Shown: positions 1-15,708, counted from the stretch's first letter. The stretch: DNA of 20,094 nucleotides from a virus (IMGVR_UViG_2563366990_000010:1-20094); one strand, 5' to 3'. Numbers and translations: made by a program. The notes: generated by a model not told the origin, from the letters alone.

Positions 1-243
1 TTATCTTGAAGGGTTAGTTGATGCGCCATTAACCTGAGCATTATTTCTTTCCCACTCCAGAATATCAGAAAGCCACCAACGATTGGGGTTTCCCTTTATT
101 GTTGGTTTAGGAAATGGTTTGCTGAGGGACTTTGGCTTTCTGTCTGGAGTACTCCAGAAATACAGAGTGCTTCGTGAAATTTTATATCGTTCCAGAATAT
201 CTTTGGTTAACAAGATTTCATTTGTTTTTGTAATGTCGTTCAT
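1..243 (-). CDS. AlpA-family excisionase / transcriptional regulator (Xis-like), 80 aa
   Basis: Complete ORF with stop at 1-3. The translation shows an AlpA-type HTH signature (ILLTKDILERYKISRSTLYFW ... NRWWLSDILEWE). GGAGA ribosome-binding site about 7 nt upstream of the ATG at 241-243. Sits at the distal end of the leftward operon where xis lies in lambdoid phages. Confidence 0.55.
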   Translation of the reverse strand: MNDITKTNEILLTKDILERYKISRSTLYFWSTPDRKPKSLSKPFPKPTIKGNPNRWWLSDILEWERNNAQVNGASTNPSR

Positions 244-272
244 TTTATTCTCCAGTTGAATTGTTTAATCAT

Positions 273-295
273 CGAAAAACCGCCCGAAGGCGGTT
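273..295 (-). terminator. Candidate intrinsic terminator on the minus strand between the 83-aa ORF and the xis-like gene
   Basis: Perfect 7-bp stem AACCGCC / GGCGGTT with a 4-nt loop at 278-295, followed on the minus strand by a U-run (plus-strand AAAAA at 275-279). Confidence 0.45.
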
Positions 296-296
296 G

Positions 297-548
297 TCAG
301 TTGATTGATGTGCGGCGCATTTTGCGAAGGCTGGCAATATGCTTTTCCTTCTCAATTTCTGCTTTAATCATGTGTAGTTCGTTGTGATCGATTCGCTCAA
401 ATTCTGCATTAAATGCGCTAATTGAAGCGGCTCTGGTTCTCCCATCCAGCCTTCGGAAGATTACCTGCGTCAGAGTGATTTTGCAGACTTCAACCGGATA
501 GTTGTTGGCATCGACGAAAGACTGCCCGCGCTGGATTAGAACGAACAC
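297..548 (-). CDS. Hypothetical protein, 83 aa
   Basis: ORF between exo and the xis-like gene; the first codon is GTG and the ribosome-binding site is weak. I recognise no family. Confidence 0.45.
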   Translation of the reverse strand: MFVLIQRGQSFVDANNYPVEVCKITLTQVIFRRLDGRTRAASISAFNAEFERIDHNELHMIKAEIEKEKHIASLRKMRRTSIN

Positions 549-596
549 CGGTAGTATTCCTTAATTGTCATATCATTTGCACCTCGTTGCTACTGG

Positions 597-1277
597 CTAT
601 CGCCATTGCTCCCCAAATACAAAACCAATTTCAGCCAGTGCCTCGTCCATTTTTTCGATGAACTCTGGCACCATTTCGTCAAAACCAGCCATGTATTTTT
701 CATCCCGTTCGACCACGACATAATGCAGTCCTTCACGCTTCATACGCGGGTCATAGTTGGCAAAGTACCAGGCATCTTTTCGTGTCACCCACATGCTGTA
801 CTGCACCTGGGCCATGTAAGCCGACTTTATGGCCTCGAAACCACCTAGCCGGAACTTCATGAAATCCCGGGAGGTAAACGGGCATTTCAGCTCAAGGCCG
901 TTGCCATCACTGCATAAACCATCGGGAGAGCAGGCGGTACGCATACTTTCGTCGCGATAGATGATCGGGGATTCAGTAACATTCACGCCGGAAGTGAACT
1001 CAAACAGGGTTCTGGCGTCGTTCTCGTACTGTTTTCCCCAGGCCAGCGCCTTAGCGTTAACTTCCGGAGCCACACCGGTGCAAACCTCGGCAAGCAGGGT
1101 GTGGAAGTAGGACATTTTCATGTCAGGCCATTTCTTTCCGGAGCGGGGTTTTGCTATCACGTTGTGAACTTCTGAAGCTGTGATGACGCCGAGCCGTAAT
1201 TTGTGCCACGCATCATCCCCCTGCACGATAGCTCTCACGTCGATCCCGGTACGCTGCAGGATAATGTCCGATGTCAT
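597..1277 (-). CDS. exo: Lambda-type 5'-3' exonuclease (Red alpha), 226 aa
   Basis: The translation is near-identical, from recall, to phage lambda Exo (YqaJ-type fold, same 226-aa length). Its start overlaps the bet stop. Confidence 0.95.
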
Positions 1278-2059
1278 ATTGCCACCTTCTGCTCTGCGGC
1301 TTTCTGTTTCAGGAATCCAAGAGCTTTCACTGCTTCGTCCTGTTTCAGTTCTGACAATGCACGAATGTCGCGGCGAAATATCTGGGAACAGAGCGGCAAT
1401 AAGTCGTCATCCCATGTTTTATCCAGGGCGATCAGCAGAGTGTTAATCTCCTGCATGGTTTCATCGTTAACCGGAGTGATGTCGCGTTCCGGCTGATGTT
1501 CTGCAGTGTGTGCGGTATTTTCGACAATGCGCTCGGCTTCATCCTTGTCATAGATACCCGCAAATCCGAAGGCCAGCCGGGCACACTGAATCATGGCTTT
1601 ATGCCGTAACATCCGTTTGGGATGCGACTGCCACGGCCCCGTAATTTCTTTGCCTTCTCGGGTTTTGAATGGTGCGCGGCGACATTCATCCATCCACTCG
1701 GTAACGCAGATCGGGTGATTGCGATCTTTGCGGTAAATCCGGCATGTACAGGACTCATTGTCCTGCTCAAAGTCCATGCCATCAAACTGCTGGTTTTCAT
1801 TGATAATGCGGGACCAGCCATCAACGCCAACCACCGGAACGATGCCGTTCTGCTTGTCAGGGAAGGCGTAAATTTCTTTCGTCCAGGGATTAAGGCCGTA
1901 CTGGTTGGCGACGATCAACAATGCGATAAATTGCGCATCGCTGGCATCACCTTTAAATGCCGTCTGGCGAAGAGTGGTGATTAGTTCCTGTGGGTCGACA
2001 GAATCCATGCCGACACGTTCAGCCAGCTTCCCTGCCAGCGTTGCGAGTGCTGTACTCAT
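1274..2059 (-). CDS. bet: Lambda-type single-strand annealing protein (Red beta), 261 aa
   Basis: The translation is near-identical, from recall, to lambda Bet (261 aa, RecT/Red-beta family). Lies directly between gam and exo as in lambda. Confidence 0.95.
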
Positions 2060-2064
2060 CCGTT

Positions 2065-2361
2065 TTATACCTCTGAATCAATATTAATTTGGTGACGGGC
2101 GATGGTTTCAGCCATGTAGCGGATGTGTTCTGCCATGCGTTCCTGAAAATCGACATCGTCATCAAATGCACGGGAAATAGCTTTTTTGCTGGCCCCGTGA
2201 CGTTGCAGATTATCGATGCATAGCGATTCAAACAGGTGTTGGGGCAGACCTTTTTCCAGGTCGTCTGCCAGCTCAGCTTCAGTTTCTTCACGGGCAATTT
2301 GCTGGTAGTGTCGTGCCCATGACTGCTCTTCAATGCGATCGGGGATAAGCCAGGCATTCAT
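2065..2361 (-). CDS. gam: RecBCD inhibitor Gam, short 98-aa form
   Basis: The translation matches the lambda Gam C-terminal domain ([14 protein letters not shown] ... [20 protein letters not shown]). Its ATG overlaps the upstream ORF stop (ATGA), so only the 98-aa form is encoded here. Confidence 0.92.
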
Positions 2362-4430
2362 GATTTATCACCTCCGAAATTTTCAAGCCTGTTGGCAATC
2401 ATGATGGCGATATCAGGGATTGCTGGCGCTGTGGCTATACATGCGGGGTTGGCGCACAAACCATAGACGGCGGCAATCACGAGCTGTCTTTTCCAGTCGA
2501 GAGTTACTGGCTCAGAATTGGCGTCATCGCCGGACGTATCACTGCCTGGCTCGTTCTGAACAACGGTTTCGCCCTCCTGAGCGGCATCAACAGAGTTTTC
2601 CTGAATGATCTTCTCCTCAGTTTGTGCTGAGTCTTCTCCATCAGCGGCGTCATTTTCTCCAAAAGTTTCTGTGTAAGTGCTATCGCCCATTACCGCACTA
2701 CAGTCAGGGCAGTTACCCCCGCCAGTCTGACCACAGACGCGGCAGTTTTTTTCCAGCTCCGGTTGCGCTACTGGGGCTGGCTGTTGCTCTTCTGGCCCGT
2801 TTTGTTGCGTATCCGGGCTGTTTTGTCCCGCTTCTGGGGCAATTTGTTCCACTTTGGACTGATTCTGGTCCTCAGTGTCGCGAGCCTGGATCCCCTTAAT
2901 CCACTTCGGGTCGGTTGGGTCGCTGATGCCTTCAACGAATTCTCCTCGAGAAGCTGCCAGTAATTTGTCGGCATCGACTGGATTCCTGGGGGGAATGTTT
3001 TCCCTGGCTTTATTGAGTTCCTCCCGCAGCTTCTGGTATTTCGTTTCTACAGATGAGACATTTTCCAGTGATTGCGTGTCCTCATTATGTTTAACTGGAA
3101 TTTTTTCCACTGATTCAGGCGCTGCCTGTTCATTAGCCATTGTGTCTGATGCTTGCTGCTTTTCTTCATCGTTATGTTTCTCTTCTGTTGTTCCGCGCTG
3201 CGGCATCGGGGCTGATGAGCGACCGCAGGCAATTTCCACGATCTCCGGATCCGGGTTAGTGTGATCGGTTTCGGTTAACACTTTGTTGAGATACTCAGTC
3301 ACGCGTGCCGGGATGGCCTCAATGCCGATTGGTGCTTCTTTCACGGAAGCCACCACAATGGCGCGGGAATAATCCAGCCCACCGGGCATGGCGATAAATT
3401 TGTCGCGAAAAACAGAAAAGGGCGGCTTATTCTCTGACACGATTTCTTCAACGCGTTTTGCGTGTGCTGGGTGCAGGTTATAAATATCCACATCCATTGA
3501 ACGGGCCAGAACGCCGGTGGCTACATCTCGTGCGAGTGATGTCTTATCATGTTTGAATCCTTCACCACGATCGGTAATATTTCCGCCGCCAGCGTTAGCA
3601 CCGGAAGGCGTACGGGTAATGCCTGAAACATAATTTCCGTTCTGCCATTCTTTTGTCAGCAGGCCCTGATCAAGGTAGTCAGTTTTCATCCAGGTGGAAA
3701 TGAACTTGTCGAATTCAGCCGGGCTGATGCGATGATTTGCAGAGTGGGGGAATGCTTTCCCTACAGATTCAGCCAGGCGACTAAGGTGATAGTTCGTCAG
3801 TTTATCCAGTTCATGATGCGCGGCGCGCACAGCAGTAAGCAGGCTCTGAAGGTAACTGTCCTCTGTGTCCATCTCCATACGGATCACGTTATTGCGTTGT
3901 TCTGGTGTGGCATGATGCCGGTATTTTCCATCTTCATCTTTGCTGAATAAGAAGAGGTGAAGGAAGCGATGAGTAAGGCTCAGAGTGGCGACGGGAATTT
4001 CACACTCAGAACAGTCATCGTCGCTGTCCGGGGATTCGTTTTTCTCCACATCATCCGGAATAGTTCCGTCCGGGTCATCGTTGTCATCGCCAGCAGTTGT
4101 GGCATCTTCACCGTTGATGTTGTCATTGAAGGGTATAGCCATCATGGTGATGCCATCTTCCCCGCCTTTTTCATAGCGGTTGCAGAATTCAGTATCAAAC
4201 ACGCCTTCCGGTGGAAGGTCATTCACGACGGGGAAATTTACGCGAACGGGTTTTTTGAAATCATCCTCGTCGTAGCCTGCATCGTCCATGGCTGCAATGC
4301 AGCGGGAAACTGCGACAGAAAGTTTTCTGGCATCAGCCCAGAAAAAACCGCCTTTGATGCCAAGGCGTTTTCTGACTTTATCGTTTTTTGCTTCGCAGTG
4401 TAGTGCAAAAGTCTGTTTATCAGCGCTCAT
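2358..4430 (-). CDS. Large acidic hypothetical protein, 690 aa
   Basis: Uninterrupted 2073-nt ORF in the leftward early operon immediately upstream of gam, translationally coupled to it. Contains poly-acidic low-complexity tracts, a C-x2-C-x8-C-x2-C motif ([15 protein letters not shown]) and a hydrophobic C-terminal segment. I recognise no family. Confidence 0.8.
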
Positions 4431-4504
4431 TGTATTTAAACCTCTGGCTGGATTAGAATTAGAGGCCCTTTGTCTGATTTCTCCGAATACGGTGACGCAG
4501 GGAG

Positions 4505-4538
4505 AAATCCGGTAGCCTGCGCTGCCGGATTTTTATTT
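4505..4538 (+). terminator. Hairpin plus T-run oriented as a plus-strand intrinsic terminator (possibly bidirectional)
   Basis: 8-bp perfect stem AAATCCGG / CCGGATTT at 4505-4532 with a 12-nt loop, followed by TTATTT on the plus strand. Sits at the 3' end of the minus-strand 128-aa gene. Confidence 0.4.
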
Positions 4539-4924
4539 CAGTGGAAGGTTGCCTGGTTTGCTGTTTTGTGAGTTGTTTTTCCCTTTTCGTGCTGGCATTC
4601 AGAGCAGTCGCACTCAGAATTTTCTCTTGCAAATTCAAGAGCCTGCGCCAGTGTATGGATTTGTTGTGCTCCAATGTTGCTTCTGACGACTTCACATGCA
4701 GCATGAATATATGGGCTTGGTGTTTTGCCATTTAACCCACATGAAACCAAACGACTGTCTTTATATTCGTTATTTCCAACTTCTGTAAGCACTGAAAAAG
4801 AAAATACAAAGTCGATTTTGTATTCTTTGCATATTTTACTGATGCGTTCTGCAATTTCTTTGAGTTCATTTATTGCATCAGGACTGGTTTCGGAAAATAT
4901 TTCATTTTGCGCAAGTTCTTTCAT
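4538..4924 (-). CDS. Hypothetical protein, 128 aa, in an AT-rich block
   Basis: ORF with soluble-looking composition and a Cys-rich C-terminal patch (ECDCSECQHEKGK). Local base composition is visibly more AT-rich than the flanking Red genes. No clear ribosome-binding site. Confidence 0.5.
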   Translation of the reverse strand: MKELAQNEIFSETSPDAINELKEIAERISKICKEYKIDFVFSFSVLTEVGNNEYKDSRLVSCGLNGKTPSPYIHAACEVVRSNIGAQQIHTLAQALEFARENSECDCSECQHEKGKTTHKTANQATFH

Positions 4925-4997
4925 TTTGATTTTTCCGTGATTGATAATTAATGCGGTTTTTATTTCGGCAGATATGGAAGGTGTATTTTATTACTCG

Positions 4998-5219
4998 TCA
5001 CAACGACTCTGCTTTTACGGGTAAGCCATCGCGCCCGATGAAAACTTTAATCATGCAGTCGGTAATGCATGTTTTTGTTGTGAAGTTACGAATATAGAGT
5101 TTTCTCTTTTCAATATTGTTTGCTGAAGCGATATATGTCCGACCTTCATGAAGAACATAATCGCCAGGCGTCACGCACTGACGTGGTATTTCATCAGTTC
5201 CGAAGTGATGAGCAATCAT
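4998..5219 (-). CDS. Hypothetical protein, about 73 aa
   Basis: The ORF track gives 4998-5237 from a GTG. I place the start at the ATG at 5217-5219, which has a GGAG 7 nt upstream. AT-rich. Confidence 0.4.
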
Positions 5220-5676
5220 AATTATCTCCATTTTCACAAATGAACTTTGTTGATGCGGTGCCTGGTGCCTCCAGGTGGCGTTAACCAGTTAACAATTAAC
5301 GCCGGGTCAGGGGACGATGACTTTCCGTGACATCCTGTCGGTTTAACTGTTCCGCGTGCGCTGAGCCGCATTCACCGCATCACAAAATTCACTTTAAAAA
5401 GGGCGGACATCAGCAATCGGCAAACCGATATCCGCCAAGGGTTACACACAGCAATGTTGTTATTCACAACCGGAAGCGCACGGTCGAAGAAATCTAACGA
5501 CAATCCTTCTATGGGAAAGAGTCTTCGCCTCGCGCTTTCGTGTAGTACCCTGGCTTTTCAGGGTAATGTCTGTTCAGTAAAGTGAGAGTGCCGGAACTCA
5601 CCCGTGTCCGGCGCACGATCTCCACCTCACCCGTGGAGAACTCCTCAACTACAAACCCCGTAAGGAGAGTGAATTT

Positions 5677-5886
5677 ATGACACAAGAAGAAAAAGTGATG
5701 TTTCTGATGCGGCTGGCTGTCGATACCTACAACACACAATTCAGGGAGAAAGATATACCTCAAAAGGCAGTTCCTGCCGCGGTAGATAAGGGCGGTGCTA
5801 TTGCCGTATTTTACGATGCATTTGAATCATTTTTTGATGAAAAACTCGACGCTGTTAGCGACTTCGGAACATCGAGTAATAAATAA
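5677..5886 (+). CDS. Hypothetical protein, 69 aa, plus-strand gene inside the leftward operon region
   Basis: Strong AAGGAG ribosome-binding site 8 nt before the ATG at 5677. Preceded by a 437-bp structured non-coding region. Its 3' end overlaps the convergent 119-aa ORF by about 30 nt. Confidence 0.5.
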   Translation: MTQEEKVMFLMRLAVDTYNTQFREKDIPQKAVPAAVDKGGAIAVFYDAFESFFDEKLDAVSDFGTSSNK

Positions 5887-6214
5887 CGTTCATTACGGTT
5901 CTTAAACAACAATCAGTGGGCTTGATGTTGTTCTTTTCAAGCTCACTTGCCATCACTTCCATTATTCTTGCGCTTACACGAATTATTTGGTGGCTGTAAG
6001 CGACGCAACTATCGCTGATATTGCTGTTTATTTCTATTACTTCATTTTCACTGGCGGCGCTAAATTTGGATATGCCGTTTCCATTGTCCTGTTTCAGTGC
6101 TGTTTCCGCTATCCGGATGCGTTCCTGCGTTGCGGAATTTGGGCTAAGTCGATAAACCTGTCTGGCATCTTCCAGAAGCAGGGCGATAATGTGCTTCAGT
6201 TCTGTTTCATTCAT
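5855..6214 (-). CDS. Hypothetical protein, about 119 aa
   Basis: The ORF track gives 5855-6235. I place the start at the internal ATG at 6212-6214, which has a GGAG 7 nt upstream. Confidence 0.5.
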   Translation of the reverse strand: MNETELKHIIALLLEDARQVYRLSPNSATQERIRIAETALKQDNGNGISKFSAASENEVIEINSNISDSCVAYSHQIIRVSARIMEVMASELEKNNIKPTDCCLRTVMNVIYYSMFRSR

Positions 6215-6245
6215 AGTTAACTCCGGTAGTTGCAATTTATTAATA

Positions 6246-6431
6246 TCAGGCGGTCAGCTCTTTAAGCTTCTGAACTGCTTTATTCATTTCATCCATACAG
6301 TCGATGAATTCGTCCAGTTTAAGCTGCATTTTTCCGGCGGCCTGAAGAATTTCAAGTTTTAAGGGCGCAAGTTTTTTGTTGTAATCGACGCAGGTTATTA
6401 ACTCGCGGCCAGTAATATTTTGGCTTGGCAC
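6246..6431 (-). CDS. Possible small ORF (61 aa) or the frameshifted C-terminal part of the upstream gene
   Basis: Begins with GTG and a weak ribosome-binding site. Overlaps the 3' end of the 6352-6633 ORF by 80 nt in another frame; its translation looks more helical and protein-like than the alternative frame. Confidence 0.25.
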   Translation of the reverse strand: MPSQNITGRELITCVDYNKKLAPLKLEILQAAGKMQLKLDEFIDCMDEMNKAVQKLKELTA

Positions 6432-6633
6432 GAGATCCGGGTCTTGAACCTACACAAACTATATAGCTCTCTTCTTTCCTCGGAAGGCCAGGTGCATCCA
6501 GCAGACGGCCTAGTTCGAATTTTTTTACGTTGACACCAGGAGGAATCACCTCGACGATAAACCCGATTTTTACCTTCGTTACACCGTTTGATGAGCTTGA
6601 CCATTTAACTTCATCGTTCAATTTGAACTTCAT
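6352..6633 (-). CDS. Hypothetical protein, about 93 aa, first gene after N
   Basis: GAGG ribosome-binding site 6 nt before the ATG at 6631-6633. Starts 9 nt after the N stop. The C-terminal 26 residues look atypical (see the frameshift finding). Confidence 0.5.
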   Translation of the reverse strand: MKFKLNDEVKWSSSSNGVTKVKIGFIVEVIPPGVNVKKFELGRLLDAPGLPRKEESYIVCVGSRPGSRAKPKYYWPRVNNLRRLQQKTCALKT

Positions 6634-6641
6634 CATTAACC

Positions 6642-6947
6642 TCAATCGTAATAAGCCGGAATTGATTTTCCGCGTTGTTTCTGGCGGCCTGAGCAAGTCA
6701 CACCCATTTCACTGCGTGGTTTGCGGTAGTAAATACGGTTCTGTTTACTCTCGACTTCTTCTGCCTTCTTGCAGCGAAGGCTTCCGAGTGATACTGCTTT
6801 GTCTGCTCCGACGCAACCAGAGATCTTTAGCGCAATCTTCCGTGTCAGTCTTTCACTACTGCGCCGCTCTGCAATAAGTTCTTCCCTGCGAGCTTTATAG
6901 CGGCTTTTTGCCGTACCTTTGGATTCTTTCCAGATTATGGTTACCAT
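6642..6947 (-). CDS. N: N-type transcription antiterminator, phage-21-like arginine-rich motif, about 101 aa
   Basis: Small, very basic protein whose N-terminus carries GTAKSRYKARREELIAERR, matching the arginine-rich motif of phage 21 N as I recall it. AAGGAG ribosome-binding site 6 nt before the ATG at 6945-6947. boxA/boxB lie directly upstream on the same strand. Confidence 0.8.
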   Translation of the reverse strand: MVTIIWKESKGTAKSRYKARREELIAERRSSERLTRKIALKISGCVGADKAVSLGSLRCKKAEEVESKQNRIYYRKPRSEMGVTCSGRQKQRGKSIPAYYD

Positions 6948-7057
6948 GATGGTCTCCTTTAAGTGGCTTTGGTGTATGACGCGTCGAGGTGTTTTTCTTC
7001 TCGATCGCGGCCTTGCAACTGAAATTCGCGTCATCCCCAAAACCACTTAGATTTTGG

Positions 7058-7098
7058 TCTCAACGGTTAGGTTGAGAGTCCATCAATGTTAAAGAGCC
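7058..7098 (-). promoter_or_regulatory. nutL: boxA plus boxB hairpin
   Basis: On the minus strand GGCTCTTTAACATTG (boxA-like; plus-strand 7084-7098) is followed by the hairpin TCTCAAC-CTAACC-GTTGAGA (7-bp perfect stem; plus-strand 7058-7077), just upstream of N. Confidence 0.7.
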
Positions 7099-7146
7099 GG
7101 CCAATCTGTTCCGTTTGGCTTCCAGCGTCCTGCTGTTGAATTGAAG

Positions 7147-7209
7147 ATAACCTAAGTTATCTGGTTGCGCAATAACTATATTTATCATTTTATGAAAAAC
7201 GTTATAAAT
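7147..7209. promoter_or_regulatory. OL operator cluster overlapping the leftward early promoter
   Basis: 14-bp sites of form ATAAC-N4-GTTAT: ATAACCTAAGTTAT (7147-7160), ATAACTATATTTAT (7172-7185) and a degenerate third near 7196-7209, about 24-25 bp centre to centre. Same consensus as the OR sites. Confidence 0.5.
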
Positions 7210-7280
7210 GACTGATAACAAAAATATTTTATTTTTTGTGGTATCCGCGTGATATTTTCAAGGGGGAAAGGCTGATTGTT

Positions 7281-7502
7281 ATGGGTGATTGCATGTTAAT
7301 CGAAGGGGAATTTGGTGTGTTGCACCAGCGGGTAGTCGAAATTCTAGGGGTGTCGTTGCTTGAGGTTATTGCTACTGGGGAAGCTATTTCAGCAGATGCT
7401 ATTGCGGGAATGATCCGAGTGCTTCACCATGATGAATTGGATGATCTCGCTGTGAAGTTAGCTATAGATGTGTTACTTCAGGATATGCGACTGTGTAATT
7501 AA
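7281..7502 (+). CDS. Hypothetical protein, about 73 aa, between OL and cI on the opposite strand
   Basis: The ORF track gives 7236-7502 from a TTG. I place the start at the ATG at 7281, which has a G-rich ribosome-binding site (AAGGGGGAAAGG). Occupies the slot where lambda carries rexAB. No family recognised. Confidence 0.35.
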   Translation: MGDCMLIEGEFGVLHQRVVEILGVSLLEVIATGEAISADAIAGMIRVLHHDELDDLAVKLAIDVLLQDMRLCN

Positions 7503-7530
7503 GTAAATAAAACCCGGCACTGGAGCCGGG
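7503..7530 (-). terminator. Intrinsic terminator downstream of cI (minus strand)
   Basis: Perfect 6-bp GC stem CCCGGC / GCCGGG at 7513-7530 with a 6-nt loop, followed on the minus strand by UUUUAUUUAC (plus 7503-7512 A-rich). Confidence 0.55.
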
Positions 7531-7654
7531 GGATTTAGAAATGGCATTTTATGAATTGGCTACTTGGCGAATGGTTTACCATCGGTGGTATTGAGCACAA
7601 TAAAAAGCCGTTCTTCGTGAGTGTTCTTATAGCAAAAGTTCAGTTGGAGTCTGA

Positions 7655-8362
7655 TTACCAGCTATGTGATGACCAGAACACTCGCCCTATGATTCTTACG
7701 TTTTTGTAGAATTCTTCTCTGTTCATTACTTCATCAGGATACTCTTCGCGGTTTATCGATCTGATAATTACCGATGTTGGCGTGGCTATGAGCGTTTTTA
7801 CCCTTAACAAATCAGCTTGGCAAATTGCATATGTTTTACCATCCCTGATGCTCGTATCTTGCGTGTTTACCCCCACCACATCACCATCATGGAGTGTTGG
7901 CTCCATGCTTTGCCCAACAACCCTGACCAACTTTGCCGCTTTTTCTGGAACTCCCATTTTTTTCAGGTAATAGCGCCTAAAAACTAGAGAGAATTCTGCG
8001 GACTCCTCCAATGCACAACTTCCTCCGCCAGCTGAAAGTGAAATATTTAGAAGGGGGAGCGCAACAAATTCGTCATTATCATTTTGATGATCATCCCAGG
8101 CGATAGCTTTTAAAGATGATTCCCGAGCATTAGATGGCTCTTCTGCGCTCTGTGGTCTCATTGACCCTATACCAGAGCTTAGCCATTCAGGGCGAACTCT
8201 TAACGCGTTGGCTAATTCGACCATTTTACGTGATCCGGTTGTTTTACCAGATGACATCTTTTGTATGGCTGGTTGTGATACCCCCACCATGTCTGCAAGT
8301 TGTGCTTGTGACAACCCGGCTGAACTCATGGCGGCATTTAGTCTTTCTGCGAATGTTTTCAT
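7655..8362 (-). CDS. cI: CI-like prophage repressor (N-terminal HTH plus C-terminal S24 LexA-like peptidase domain), 235 aa
   Basis: N-terminal HTH (LSQAQLADMVGVSQPAIQKM). C-terminal autoproteolysis domain with a G-Q-S-M-E-P serine motif and a downstream lysine; a candidate Ala-Gly cleavage site (LSAGGG). Divergent from the cro-like gene across the operator region. Confidence 0.9.
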   Translation of the reverse strand: MKTFAERLNAAMSSAGLSQAQLADMVGVSQPAIQKMSSGKTTGSRKMVELANALRVRPEWLSSGIGSMRPQSAEEPSNARESSLKAIAWDDHQNDNDEFVALPLLNISLSAGGGSCALEESAEFSLVFRRYYLKKMGVPEKAAKLVRVVGQSMEPTLHDGDVVGVNTQDTSIRDGKTYAICQADLLRVKTLIATPTSVIIRSINREEYPDEVMNREEFYKNVRIIGRVFWSSHSW

Positions 8363-8373
8363 ACCTGTAATCT

Positions 8374-8436
8374 ATAACCACGGTTATCAAAAGTAAAACA
8401 ACAATTGTTATTGCTCTGGTGTATAACTCATGTTAT
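8374..8436. promoter_or_regulatory. OR tripartite operator between cI and cro
   Basis: Three 14-bp sites of form ATAAC-N4-GTTAT: ATAACCACGGTTAT (8374-8387), ACAACAATTGTTAT (8398-8411) and ATAACTCATGTTAT (8423-8436), with 24-25 bp centre-to-centre spacing, lying between the divergent cI and cro starts. Confidence 0.6.
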
Positions 8437-8472
8437 TTTTGGTTATGCTTTATTTGCTGTAGAGGTATGCTC

Positions 8473-8697
8473 ATGAATTTAGTGATTCAGCGAGCCTTGA
8501 ATATTGTTGGCAGTCAAAAACGACTTGCAGCTGATTGCGGCGTATCACAGCCCGCTGTTCATAAATGGTTGCGAGGCGGAAAAGTTTCTCCTGAAAAAGT
8601 TTTCGCTATCGTTAATGCCACCAATGGTCAGGTTAAGGCTTACGAAATTCGCCCGGACTTACCGCACCTGTTTCCTCATCCGAACCAGGCTGAATAA
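8473..8697 (+). CDS. cro: Cro-like HTH regulator, about 74 aa
   Basis: Small HTH protein (LAADCGVSQPAVHKWLRG) divergent from cI. I place the start at the ATG at 8473, with AGAGG 7 nt upstream; the ORF track starts at 8419. Confidence 0.75.
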   Translation: MNLVIQRALNIVGSQKRLAADCGVSQPAVHKWLRGGKVSPEKVFAIVNATNGQVKAYEIRPDLPHLFPHPNQAE

Positions 8698-8704
8698 GTA
8701 ACAC

Positions 8705-8745
8705 CGCTCTTTAACATTGCTGGTCGTTCACCTCTAACAGGGTGA
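8705..8745 (+). promoter_or_regulatory. nutR: boxA plus boxB hairpin
   Basis: CGCTCTTTAACA (8705-8716) followed by the hairpin TCACCT-CTAACA-GGGTGA (8728-8745). The loop resembles the nutL boxB loop CTAACC while the stem sequence differs but still pairs. Confidence 0.65.
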
Positions 8746-8813
8746 GCAAACATCAGTGGCAAACCCATTGGGGATTGCCGCTTAACCCCATATCAATATA
8801 GGAAAATTAACAA

Positions 8814-14546: not shown

Positions 14547-14602
14547 TCTTCGCACGGTCGAGTTGGCCGTCGGGATTGGAACCCCGGATAGAGACCGCGA
14601 CA

Positions 14603-14628
14603 AACACACGCCGCGAGCGTGTTTTTTA
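14603..14628 (+). terminator. Leader terminator / attenuator-like hairpin about 55 nt downstream of the promoter
   Basis: Stem ACACGC / GCGTGT with loop CGCGA (14605-14621) followed by TTTTTTATT, located about 160 nt upstream of the antirepressor ATG. Confidence 0.5.
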
Positions 14629-14788
14629 TTGTCGTATGCACGCGCACATCTGAATTATGGTGGGGCGCATGGGGGAGCTGAAAAGCTCGCCGGTCGGTTT
14701 CCCGGTAGTTCCAACCCTGTGCGTCTCACCACCCGATGATTGGAACCTTACGGTGGTGATAGTTTAGAAACCACTAGAGGGCGTCATT

Positions 14789-15492: not shown

Positions 15493-15708
15493 CCGCTCCA
15501 TGGTGCTGAACACACCTTCGAAAGCGGAAACCGCGCCCGTCAGTCATGCGGATTTTTTATGTCCATTTTTCAGATATGGTCGGGTAGCGCGTATACCGAA
15601 AAACAGCCGCAAGGCTAAGGATGCGGGCCGAACTTTCGACGGTGTTCAAGTACCCGACCGCCCTGCTGAACACGGGGTGATCTGAACGAATCGAAAGGAC
15701 ATAAAACT

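Follow-up and report, generated by a model that had tools for sequence, protein, structure and literature searches.

The gap between kil and a reverse-oriented small gene of a lambdoid prophage: a probable dicF-type RNA cassette placed back to back with a small-gene slot

Location and features of the region

The stretch of DNA analysed here (IMGVR_UViG_2563366990_000010:1-20094; 20,094 nucleotides (nt), referred to as "the window") is a lambdoid prophage, and we deal with the gap between its cell-division inhibitor gene kil, on the minus strand, and a gene of 69 amino acids (aa) on the plus strand. An earlier note on this DNA had taken this gap for one self-contained, structured non-coding unit of 437 base pairs (bp) that drives the 69-aa gene. 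We consider it probable that the gap consists of two units placed back to back. Unit 1 (~5220-5547) would be a minus-strand part of the N-antiterminated early-left transcript, namely a cassette of small RNA (sRNA) and leader homologous to the dicF region of the Qin prophage. Unit 2 (~5548-5676 together with 5677-5886) would lie on the plus strand and comprise the conserved upstream region and ribosome-binding site (RBS) of a cargo slot, here occupied by the 69-aa gene.

The early-left operon runs on the minus strand in the order cI-like repressor, N, three small open reading frames (ORFs), the gap, kil and recE/gam/bet/exo, and the 69-aa ORF is, as previously claimed, the sole plus-strand gene from exo to N. 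Positions 1-6385 are 97.7% identical to Escherichia coli ML35, and the region under study is 100% identical. The gene downstream of the gap is annotated as kil in ML35 and PhiR5_2, and Kil homologues bear PF27398 KilR. According to the PGAP and phage annotations and the PHROG match, its start is the ATG at 5219, 6 nt behind the GGAG at 5226-5229, and not the GTG at 5237; the true gap is therefore 457 bp (5220-5676), while the 437 bp given before is the correct length of 5240-5676.

The high density of secondary structure was confirmed: the minimum free energy of 5220-5676 has a z-score of -5.8 on the minus and -6.3 on the plus strand, and 0/100 shuffles were as stable. The single motifs of the earlier note could also be located, namely the first hairpin CCTGGTGCCTCCAGG (5261), the 8-bp inverted repeat (5277 and 5296, with GTTAAC at 5280 and 5288), the nested stem GGCGGA (5402) and TCCGCC (5431) around ATCGGCAAACCGAT (5416), the 6-bp inverted repeat GCCGGA (5590) and TCCGGC (5607), the 7-bp hairpin TCTCCAC (5619) and GTGGAGA (5633), the direct repeat CTCACCCGTG (5597 and 5626) and the strong RBS AAGGAG (5662), 9 nt ahead of the ATG at 5677. 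The longest helices, one of 19 bp and an interrupted one of 21 bp, had not been listed. The features are as follows.

5237..5391, minus: structured kil leader, ~155 nt, five helices (RNAalifold, 25 distinct copies)
5373-5391 with 5241-5260, minus: P1, 19-bp closing helix of the leader
5354-5369, minus: P2
inside 5304-5353, minus: P3, variable
5277..5303, minus: P4 hairpin, the GGCGTTAA/TTAACGCC inverted repeat
5261..5275, minus: P5 hairpin CCUGG-AGGCA-CCAGG, the first hairpin mentioned above
5343..5349, minus: J2/3 segment CAGUUAA, arm of the proposed pseudoknot, complementary to the P4 loop
5286..5292, minus: P4 loop UUAACUG, other arm of the proposed pseudoknot, in the region of the GTTAAC palindrome
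5396..5436, minus: intrinsic terminator by sequence and fold, 13-bp stem GGCGGAUAUCGGU/GCUGAUGUCCGCC, then C and U5 (the nested stem)
5437..5455, minus: single-stranded seed AUUGCUGUGUGUAACCCUU, roughly 19 nt
5396..5471, minus: predicted sRNA, long form of ~76 nt (from homology with the DicF species and the length of the short-form slot)
5465..5547, minus: H3, interrupted helix of 21 bp (5525-5547 with 5465-5487), next to the sRNA on its 5' side and a candidate site for RNase III (RNAalifold, 21 copies)
5546..5565, strand unassigned: hairpin UACCCUG-AAAAGC-CAGGGUA (from the sequence)
5590..5639, strand unassigned: two short hairpins, GCCGGA/TCCGGC (5590-5612) and TCTCCAC/GTGGAGA (5619-5639), with the direct repeat in their loops; nearly invariant
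5555..5583, plus: weak promoter-like pair TTTTCA-17 nt-TAAAGT, 8/12 matches, picked by eye and below the scan threshold
5662..5886, plus: RBS AAGGAG (5662-5667) and 69-aa gene (5677-5886; phrog_2605, E 1.5e-45)
4998..5219, minus: kil, KilR-type cell-division inhibitor, 73 aa (phrog_294 'Kil protein for bacterial septation inhibition', E 4.9e-36)
5855..6214, minus: 119-aa gene of the early-left operon, which precedes the gap (phrog_2982)
6642 to about 6947, minus: phi21-type N with the motif GTAKSRYKARREELIAERR, upstream of the cassette
7655-8362, minus: cI-like repressor, upstream of the cassette

Relationship to the Qin and Rac prophages

Read on the minus strand, positions 5220-5676 could be aligned throughout with spacers of two K-12 prophages, ydfC-dicF-dicB in Qin and kilR-sieB in Rac. 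The modules follow one another in the RNA as H3 helix, DicF-position sRNA with an intrinsic terminator, leader of ~155 nt and kil. Rfam gave only sub-threshold matches in the gap, all of them on the minus strand: DicF (5401-5450), STnc100 (5205-5399) and a weak RprA. Apart from the 69-aa ORF and the ~90 bp proximal to it, the gap is a variant of a known dicF-type cassette.

The Qin dicBF operon resembles the window in having the two short hairpins, H3, an sRNA with a GGCGG...CCGCCC-U5 terminator, the leader and a division inhibitor, in the same order on the operon strand. The differences are several: an insert of ~115 nt that belongs to the long form is missing from the window; the seed and hairpin loop of the window are unlike those of DicF (29 versus 76.7 bits with the DicF model); the downstream gene is kil in the window and dicB in Qin; the operon is controlled by a phi21-type N in the window and by DicA/DicC in Qin; and the plus-strand gene of the window is only a remnant in Qin.

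The Rac kilR region shares with the window the short-form slot, the seed family, the leader and a KilR-type gene, and it carries the opposite-strand cargo gene sieB at the place equivalent to that of the 69-aa gene. It differs in lacking the two short hairpins and the 69-aa gene and in the inner sequence of H3. Rac kilR is silenced by Rho/NusG-dependent termination upstream (PMC10798246), which fits a long untranslated and regulated approach to the gene. We also considered a Rho-utilisation site in the gap of the window, and rejected it: in the minus-sense RNA the C/G ratio is 0.84-0.91 and structure is abundant, which is atypical of such sites.

The structured leader of kil

Among the 25 distinct copies of the leader 98.3% of the cells are paired, as compared with 30-43% in slid controls, and 17 of the 43 pairs have changes on both sides. 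The observed values were reached by 0/500 shuffles on four of five measures and by 9/500 for the count of further pair types. In P4, compensatory double changes occur in 5 of the 11 pairs; Rac, for instance, has GACUGUAA/UUGCAGUC, and L043 has GAUACCAG/CUGGUAUC (other loci are referred to by L numbers). In P5 a U-A pair is replaced by G-C in three sequences. The stems are thus conserved in relatives and covary there. As many as 122 cells are G·U pairs, and the opposite strand would pair just 88.0% of the cells; moreover, a covariance model built from the leader copies scored 151 bits on the minus and 27.7 bits on the plus strand. Because of these strand-specific G·U pairs and model scores, we assign the hairpins at 5261-5303 and the nested stem at 5402-5436 to the kil-sense RNA, and not to a regulatory unit of the 69-aa gene. 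The same elements are found upstream of kil or dicB in phages without any plus-strand ORF, including Qin of K-12.

The fold ends ~10 nt ahead of the kil RBS GGAG, and no terminator follows P1. Its P5 hairpin contains an invariant Shine-Dalgarno-like GGAGGCACC, and the loop GGAGGCA is invariant and RBS-like. In other copies the leader stands ahead of DicB, Kil, small hydrophobic peptides and a few other genes, with a start codon within about 11-61 nt in every copy examined. The piece 5239-5406 is present in 4371 of 5426 complete E. coli genomes. Per genome it occupies 2 places in the median and 9 at most, with kil, kilR or dicB downstream of it. The leader is among the most widespread conserved non-coding elements of E. 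coli prophages, and it precedes division inhibitors that are relevant to prophage toxicity, the DNA-damage response and phage exclusion. In L026, L043, L048 and L102, it stands ahead of very small hydrophobic peptides (36-67 aa) which are neither Kil nor DicB; possibly it serves small toxic or membrane proteins quite generally as a front end. An ORF beginning at a conserved AUG inside the leader was discarded, as its length ranges from 12 to 46+ aa and its frame is variable; it is not coding.

The Rfam STnc100 model (RF02076) matched 5205-5399 on the minus strand with 27.8 bits (E 6.2e-4), short of its gathering score of 47; with the same model Qin reached 34.4, L006 31.6 and genuine STnc100 copies 66-147 bits. 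Conversely, a model of the kil/dicB leaders recovered genuine STnc100 copies at full length, with 40-58 bits and E values of 1e-10 to 1e-15. Since our own model and the Rfam model each match both groups, we regard the leader as a diverged branch of the STnc100 group. The two have in common the closing helix, the GGUGAAU junction, P4, and P5 with its invariant GGAGGCACC; the motifs characteristic of STnc100, including CACCNGGAGGCACCNGGCACC, are present in the window, and the P5 signature UCACCNGGAGGCACCNGRC is shared by leader and genuine STnc100 copies. They differ in setting: the window leader lies in the early-left operon directly ahead of a gene and has no terminator of its own, whereas genuine copies adjoin tRNA genes, and the literature places STnc100 copies downstream of stx2 or beside Fels-1 genes.

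The leader also contains a pseudoknot. The J2/3 segment and the P4 loop change in sequence among 14 representatives of different subfamilies and yet stay complementary, the two arms reading AAGGUUG/CAACCUU, CUGGUG/CACCGG, AAGCCA/UGGCUU, GACUGAUUAG/UUAAUCAGUU or GGCCAG/CUGGCC. The summed self-complementarity was 89, compared with 68.4 +/- 4.0 for permuted partners, and 0 of 20000 permutations reached 89. This pairing covaries both in the kil/dicB leaders and in the STnc100 group. RNAalifold is unable to predict pseudoknots. The consensus line printed by Rfam for STnc100 has no pairing between J2/3 and the P4 loop, and the 2026 preprint that linked STnc100 to the PasD small RNAs used RNAalifold. 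The evidence suggests that the STnc100/PasD group is better treated as RNA of complex fold.

At the 3' side of the leader (5238-5276, minus) there are three CACC repeats (CACC-UGGAGG-CACC-AGG-CACC). Each of them could in principle pair with the GGUG that ends the 5' arm of P1, which would make alternative conformations possible.

Taken as a compact domain of riboswitch or ribozyme size, carried by about 80% of the complete E. coli genomes before kil, kilR or dicB, the leader would gate the synthesis of toxic prophage proteins in cis, by RNase III entry, by ribosomes on the GGAGG loop or by binding of a ligand or protein, and conventional base-pairing as an sRNA would not be its role. The alternative is that the 155-nt fold is mainly a stand-alone, trans-acting sRNA in the manner of STnc100 and PasD. 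Both of these have been reported as Hfq-associated small RNAs, PasD being abundant in enteropathogenic E. coli, and, as described above, the covariance models of the two groups find each other. We nevertheless rate this alternative as unlikely, given that the fold lacks its own terminator and the kil RBS follows after about 10 nt, that a start codon lies close behind every copy examined, and that nothing here corresponds to the mapped PasD seed UGUGAG.

A predicted small RNA in the DicF position

Upstream of the leader, the cassette has a slot for an sRNA, which occurs in two forms. The long form (174-196 nt) stands ahead of dicB in Qin-type copies and holds the DicF precursor or variants of it. 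The short form (78-84 nt) stands mostly ahead of kil, as in the window, Rac and L006, and its seed is (C)AUUGCUGUGUGUAGUC. In the window, the sequence predicts, besides the form of ~76 nt, a shorter one of ~60 nt starting near 5455.

The position is that of DicF, that is, in an early prophage operon, after the H3 spacer and ahead of the leader of a division inhibitor. The terminator likewise corresponds: the hairpin at 5396-5436 has the form GGCGG...CCGCCC followed by U5, aligns with the DicF terminator, and has a homologue in L006 that was called terminator-like on the minus strand. Its U-run follows the stem on the minus strand only, and the stem covaries (CAUCAG/CUGAUG versus UACCAG/CUGGUA). 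The Rfam DicF model (RF00039) gave 29.2 bits (E 3.6e-4) at 5401-5450 on the minus strand, below the gathering score of 48, and its scores are graded over the slot variants, with 76.7 bits for Qin, 45.9 for L006 and 39.1 for Rac. As for pairing of the 3' part with the translation start of ftsZ, duplex energies over the whole length, compared with shuffles, left even real DicF (z = -1.45) unseparated from the others; the loop of the window differs from that of DicF.

In the 18 variants aligned, from Escherichia, Citrobacter, Serratia, Enterobacter, Trabulsiella and other genera, UGCUGUGUG is invariant (18/18), and the hairpins differ and covary. This seed has an exact match to RprA of 13 nt in the window (about 17/21 positions), 17 nt in Rac of K-12 and 20 nt in L088. 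A processed RprA, consisting of the last 47 nt, is active in vivo (PMC9262595), and by sequence the short-form seed corresponds to the seed of this processed species, which the window nearly matches. In both, a single-stranded AUUGCUGUGUGUAGUCUUUG stands directly ahead of a terminator hairpin with a U tail, and the architecture of a seed followed by a strong hairpin and U5 is found in processed RprA, in DicF and in the window sRNA. The differences from RprA as a whole are clear: the Rfam model (RF00034) gave 22.4 bits (E 7.8) against a gathering score of 70; the 5' two-thirds, including the ACGAAUU that pairs with rpoS, are not shared; the hairpin differs; and RprA belongs to the core locus ydiK-ydiL under Rcs control, whereas the window element lies in a prophage operon. 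We also compared the seed with that of PasD and the element with svsR, a recently described prophage small RNA; neither applies, as PasD uses UGUGAG and svsR lies at the 3' end of cI.

We found no literature on a small RNA upstream of kilR or on an RprA-like prophage RNA. Nor did we find a description of the RprA-like seed or of the covarying pseudoknot in an STnc100-type leader. In K-12 itself, Rac (L004, 2701-2790) has a candidate sRNA in the DicF position upstream of kilR, with the 17-nt exact match to the RprA seed (ATTGCTGTGTGTAGTC), for which no literature was found either. In a genome-wide pattern scan with variable gaps the matches were mostly due to chance, and only the enterobacterial ones were usable. 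In L136 (1420-1573), L168 (6895-7050) and L199 (1725-1910), from E. coli, Scandinavium and Enterobacter, an STnc100-type fold has the same UGCUGUGUGUAGUC seed and a GGCGG terminator immediately behind it; this order is the reverse of that in the window, and no Rfam family reached its threshold there.

The cassette might instead contain punctuation only, with 5396-5436 as an ordinary tL-type terminator overridden by N, with helices that stabilise or process the mRNA, and with no trans-acting sRNA. The lambda pL operon contains several internal terminators, the DicF model gave a mere 29 bits, and no target is known. However, the 18 variants, which come from several genera, share an unchanged stretch of 9-12 nt immediately 5' of the hairpin, while the hairpin changes freely; such a conserved stretch is unexpected for a plain terminator and disfavours it. 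In addition, the homologous slot of Qin yields the functional sRNA DicF. We thus hold a cassette of mere punctuation to be rather improbable, and prefer a cassette that includes an sRNA.

The H3 helix

In the 21 copies of H3, 97.5% of the cells are paired, compared with 28-40% in slid controls, and many of the pairs are U·G. The inner sequence is different in Rac, where the helix is nonetheless retained. The RNase III + RNase E processing of the Qin dicBF transcript yields DicF species of 190 nt and 53 nt, the former RNase III-dependent. Counted from the end of H3, the final U of the DicF terminator is reached after 192 nt in Qin; since this is close to the 190 nt of the precursor, we place the RNase III cut known from the literature within H3, in its 3' arm. 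RNase III helices between the cistrons of polycistronic phage RNA, such as those of the T7 early mRNA and the lambda N leader, resemble H3 and P1, which are 19-21 bp long. P1 differs in that it closes a pseudoknotted domain of several helices and is no simple hairpin, and cleavage in the window is only predicted.

The adjacent hairpin at 5546-5565 is probably inessential, because it is broken in Qin-type copies. It had been tried as a boxB-like N-utilisation site and was dropped, being broken in many copies and far from pL.

The plus-strand gene and its slot

The 69-aa ORF is a real gene. Both kil-type and dicB-type prophages have homologues of it, with 46-60% identity, at this place and likewise in reverse orientation, and purifying selection is seen in three diverged lineages, with a ratio of non-synonymous to synonymous substitution rates (dN/dS) of 0.35-0.44. 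In the first 15 codons there are 0 non-synonymous and 2-5 synonymous changes. Pfam and PADLOC gave no match for this protein or for the other proteins of the slot. AlphaFold2 predicted two helices with a mean confidence score (pLDDT) of 65, too uncertain to justify a fold search. The gene overlaps convergently with the 119-aa gene of the minus strand by 32 bp (5855-5886), so that the C-terminal codons of both are doubly constrained.

The ~90 bp upstream, with the hairpins, the direct repeat and the RBS, are also conserved ahead of at least four other, unrelated small ORFs of 73-92 aa; altogether five ORF families use the slot. The two short hairpins are found wherever the plus-strand ORF slot or a remnant of it is present: Qin of K-12 has kept the hairpins and lost RBS and ORF, and the L122, L027 and Rac types have neither hairpins nor ORF. 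One informative substitution in the hairpins, in L066, is compatible with a plus-strand RNA. Judging from the sequences, 5590-5676 most likely belongs to the plus-strand slot. In L016 (5624-5838), the exact stretch between two CACGGGTGA direct repeats is lost and the short hairpins are fused, which looks like a repeat-mediated deletion.

That the region drives the gene was not borne out. Scans for sigma-70 promoters upstream of the ORF found none in the window or in the homologous loci L006 and L011; the promoter-like TTTTCA/TAAAGT blocks listed above are conserved in the slot alignment. The gene had also been proposed to be a moron, and in this respect a genuine protein gene, oriented in reverse and lying in a sieB-like slot, is indeed present, while a consensus sigma-70 promoter of its own was not found. 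Such a variable slot for reverse-oriented small ORFs behind a conserved upstream region may be a hot spot of accessory genes.

The view that all 437 bp form one plus-strand regulatory unit for this gene, whether sRNA, riboswitch-like leader or operator array, thus accounts, though partly supported, only for the ORF and its proximal ~90 bp, and as a whole we deem it highly improbable: the ORF, its RBS and the proximal region shared by five unrelated ORFs are real and the plus strand also folds well (z = -6.3), but there are kil and dicB loci that have the distal 330 bp upstream and lack a plus-strand ORF, the 122 G·U cells become A·C mismatches on the plus strand, the model scores favour the minus strand, the U-run of the nested stem exists only there, and the promoter scans were negative. 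A function at the DNA level, as recombination boundaries of mosaic lambdoid genomes or as inverted repeats bound by proteins, is hardly tenable either, for although module boundaries coincide with mosaic joints and a direct repeat apparently mediated the deletion in L016, the compensatory double changes in 17 leader pairs, the covarying pseudoknot and the G·U asymmetry between strands are unexpected for DNA sites.

Proposed working of the cassette and its significance

For the minus-strand unit, we drew the steps of the mechanism from DicF biology and general lambda biology. H3 would serve as the entry site of RNase III, which would free the 5' end of the small RNA, and RNase E would trim it. 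In the absence of N, transcripts would end at the terminator at 5396-5436 and give a seed-bearing small RNA; N would allow the polymerase to pass this point and to transcribe leader and kil. Expression of the toxic division inhibitor would be controlled by the leader, through gating or through processing. That two further, linked proposals are right together, the leader being a cis-acting pseudoknotted domain and the small RNA a prophage look-alike of processed RprA, seems to us a tentative idea, possible but doubtful. On derepression of the prophage operon, such a look-alike would either make use of some of the RprA regulon or act as a competitor there.

Several points weigh against the arrangement of two units with a dicF-type cassette. 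First, the cassette is known here from its sequence alone, and the covariance models of DicF, STnc100 and RprA each stay below the curated thresholds. Second, the hairpin at 5396-5436 could be merely a terminator of the pL operon, a tail of U5 is short for a small RNA that depends on Hfq, and the seed of the window departs at 2-3 positions from the commoner form ending in GUAGUC. Third, H3 of the window bears two mismatches, and the RNase III site was placed by arithmetic. Finally, the few substitutions leave the hairpins at 5590-5639 without an assigned strand, and the negative promoter scans count here as well.

The dicF locus is among the oldest known bacterial small-RNA loci. On our reading it is one member of a modular cassette that is spread across lambdoid prophages and consists of a processing helix, an exchangeable sRNA, a structured leader and a toxic gene. 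The slot carries different seeds, and one class copies the seed of the core stress sRNA RprA, even in K-12, which makes mimicry of a host regulator by prophages a testable proposal.

Other observations in the window

The divergence of the window from its closest relatives (ML35 and PhiR5_2) starts after 6385, and the part 6386-8792 holds the arginine-rich motif of the phi21-type N and a different immunity region, a mosaicism typical of lambdoid phages. Farther to the right, Rfam gave matches above threshold on the plus strand for isrK (14554-14627), C4 antisense RNA (14653-14736) and sRNA-Xcc1 (15578-15667), in what is apparently the late-regulatory part of the prophage. Another match above threshold on the plus strand, to the sok antitoxin RNA (19776-19947; 101.5 bits), suggests a toxin-antitoxin locus of the hok/sok type at the right end of the window.

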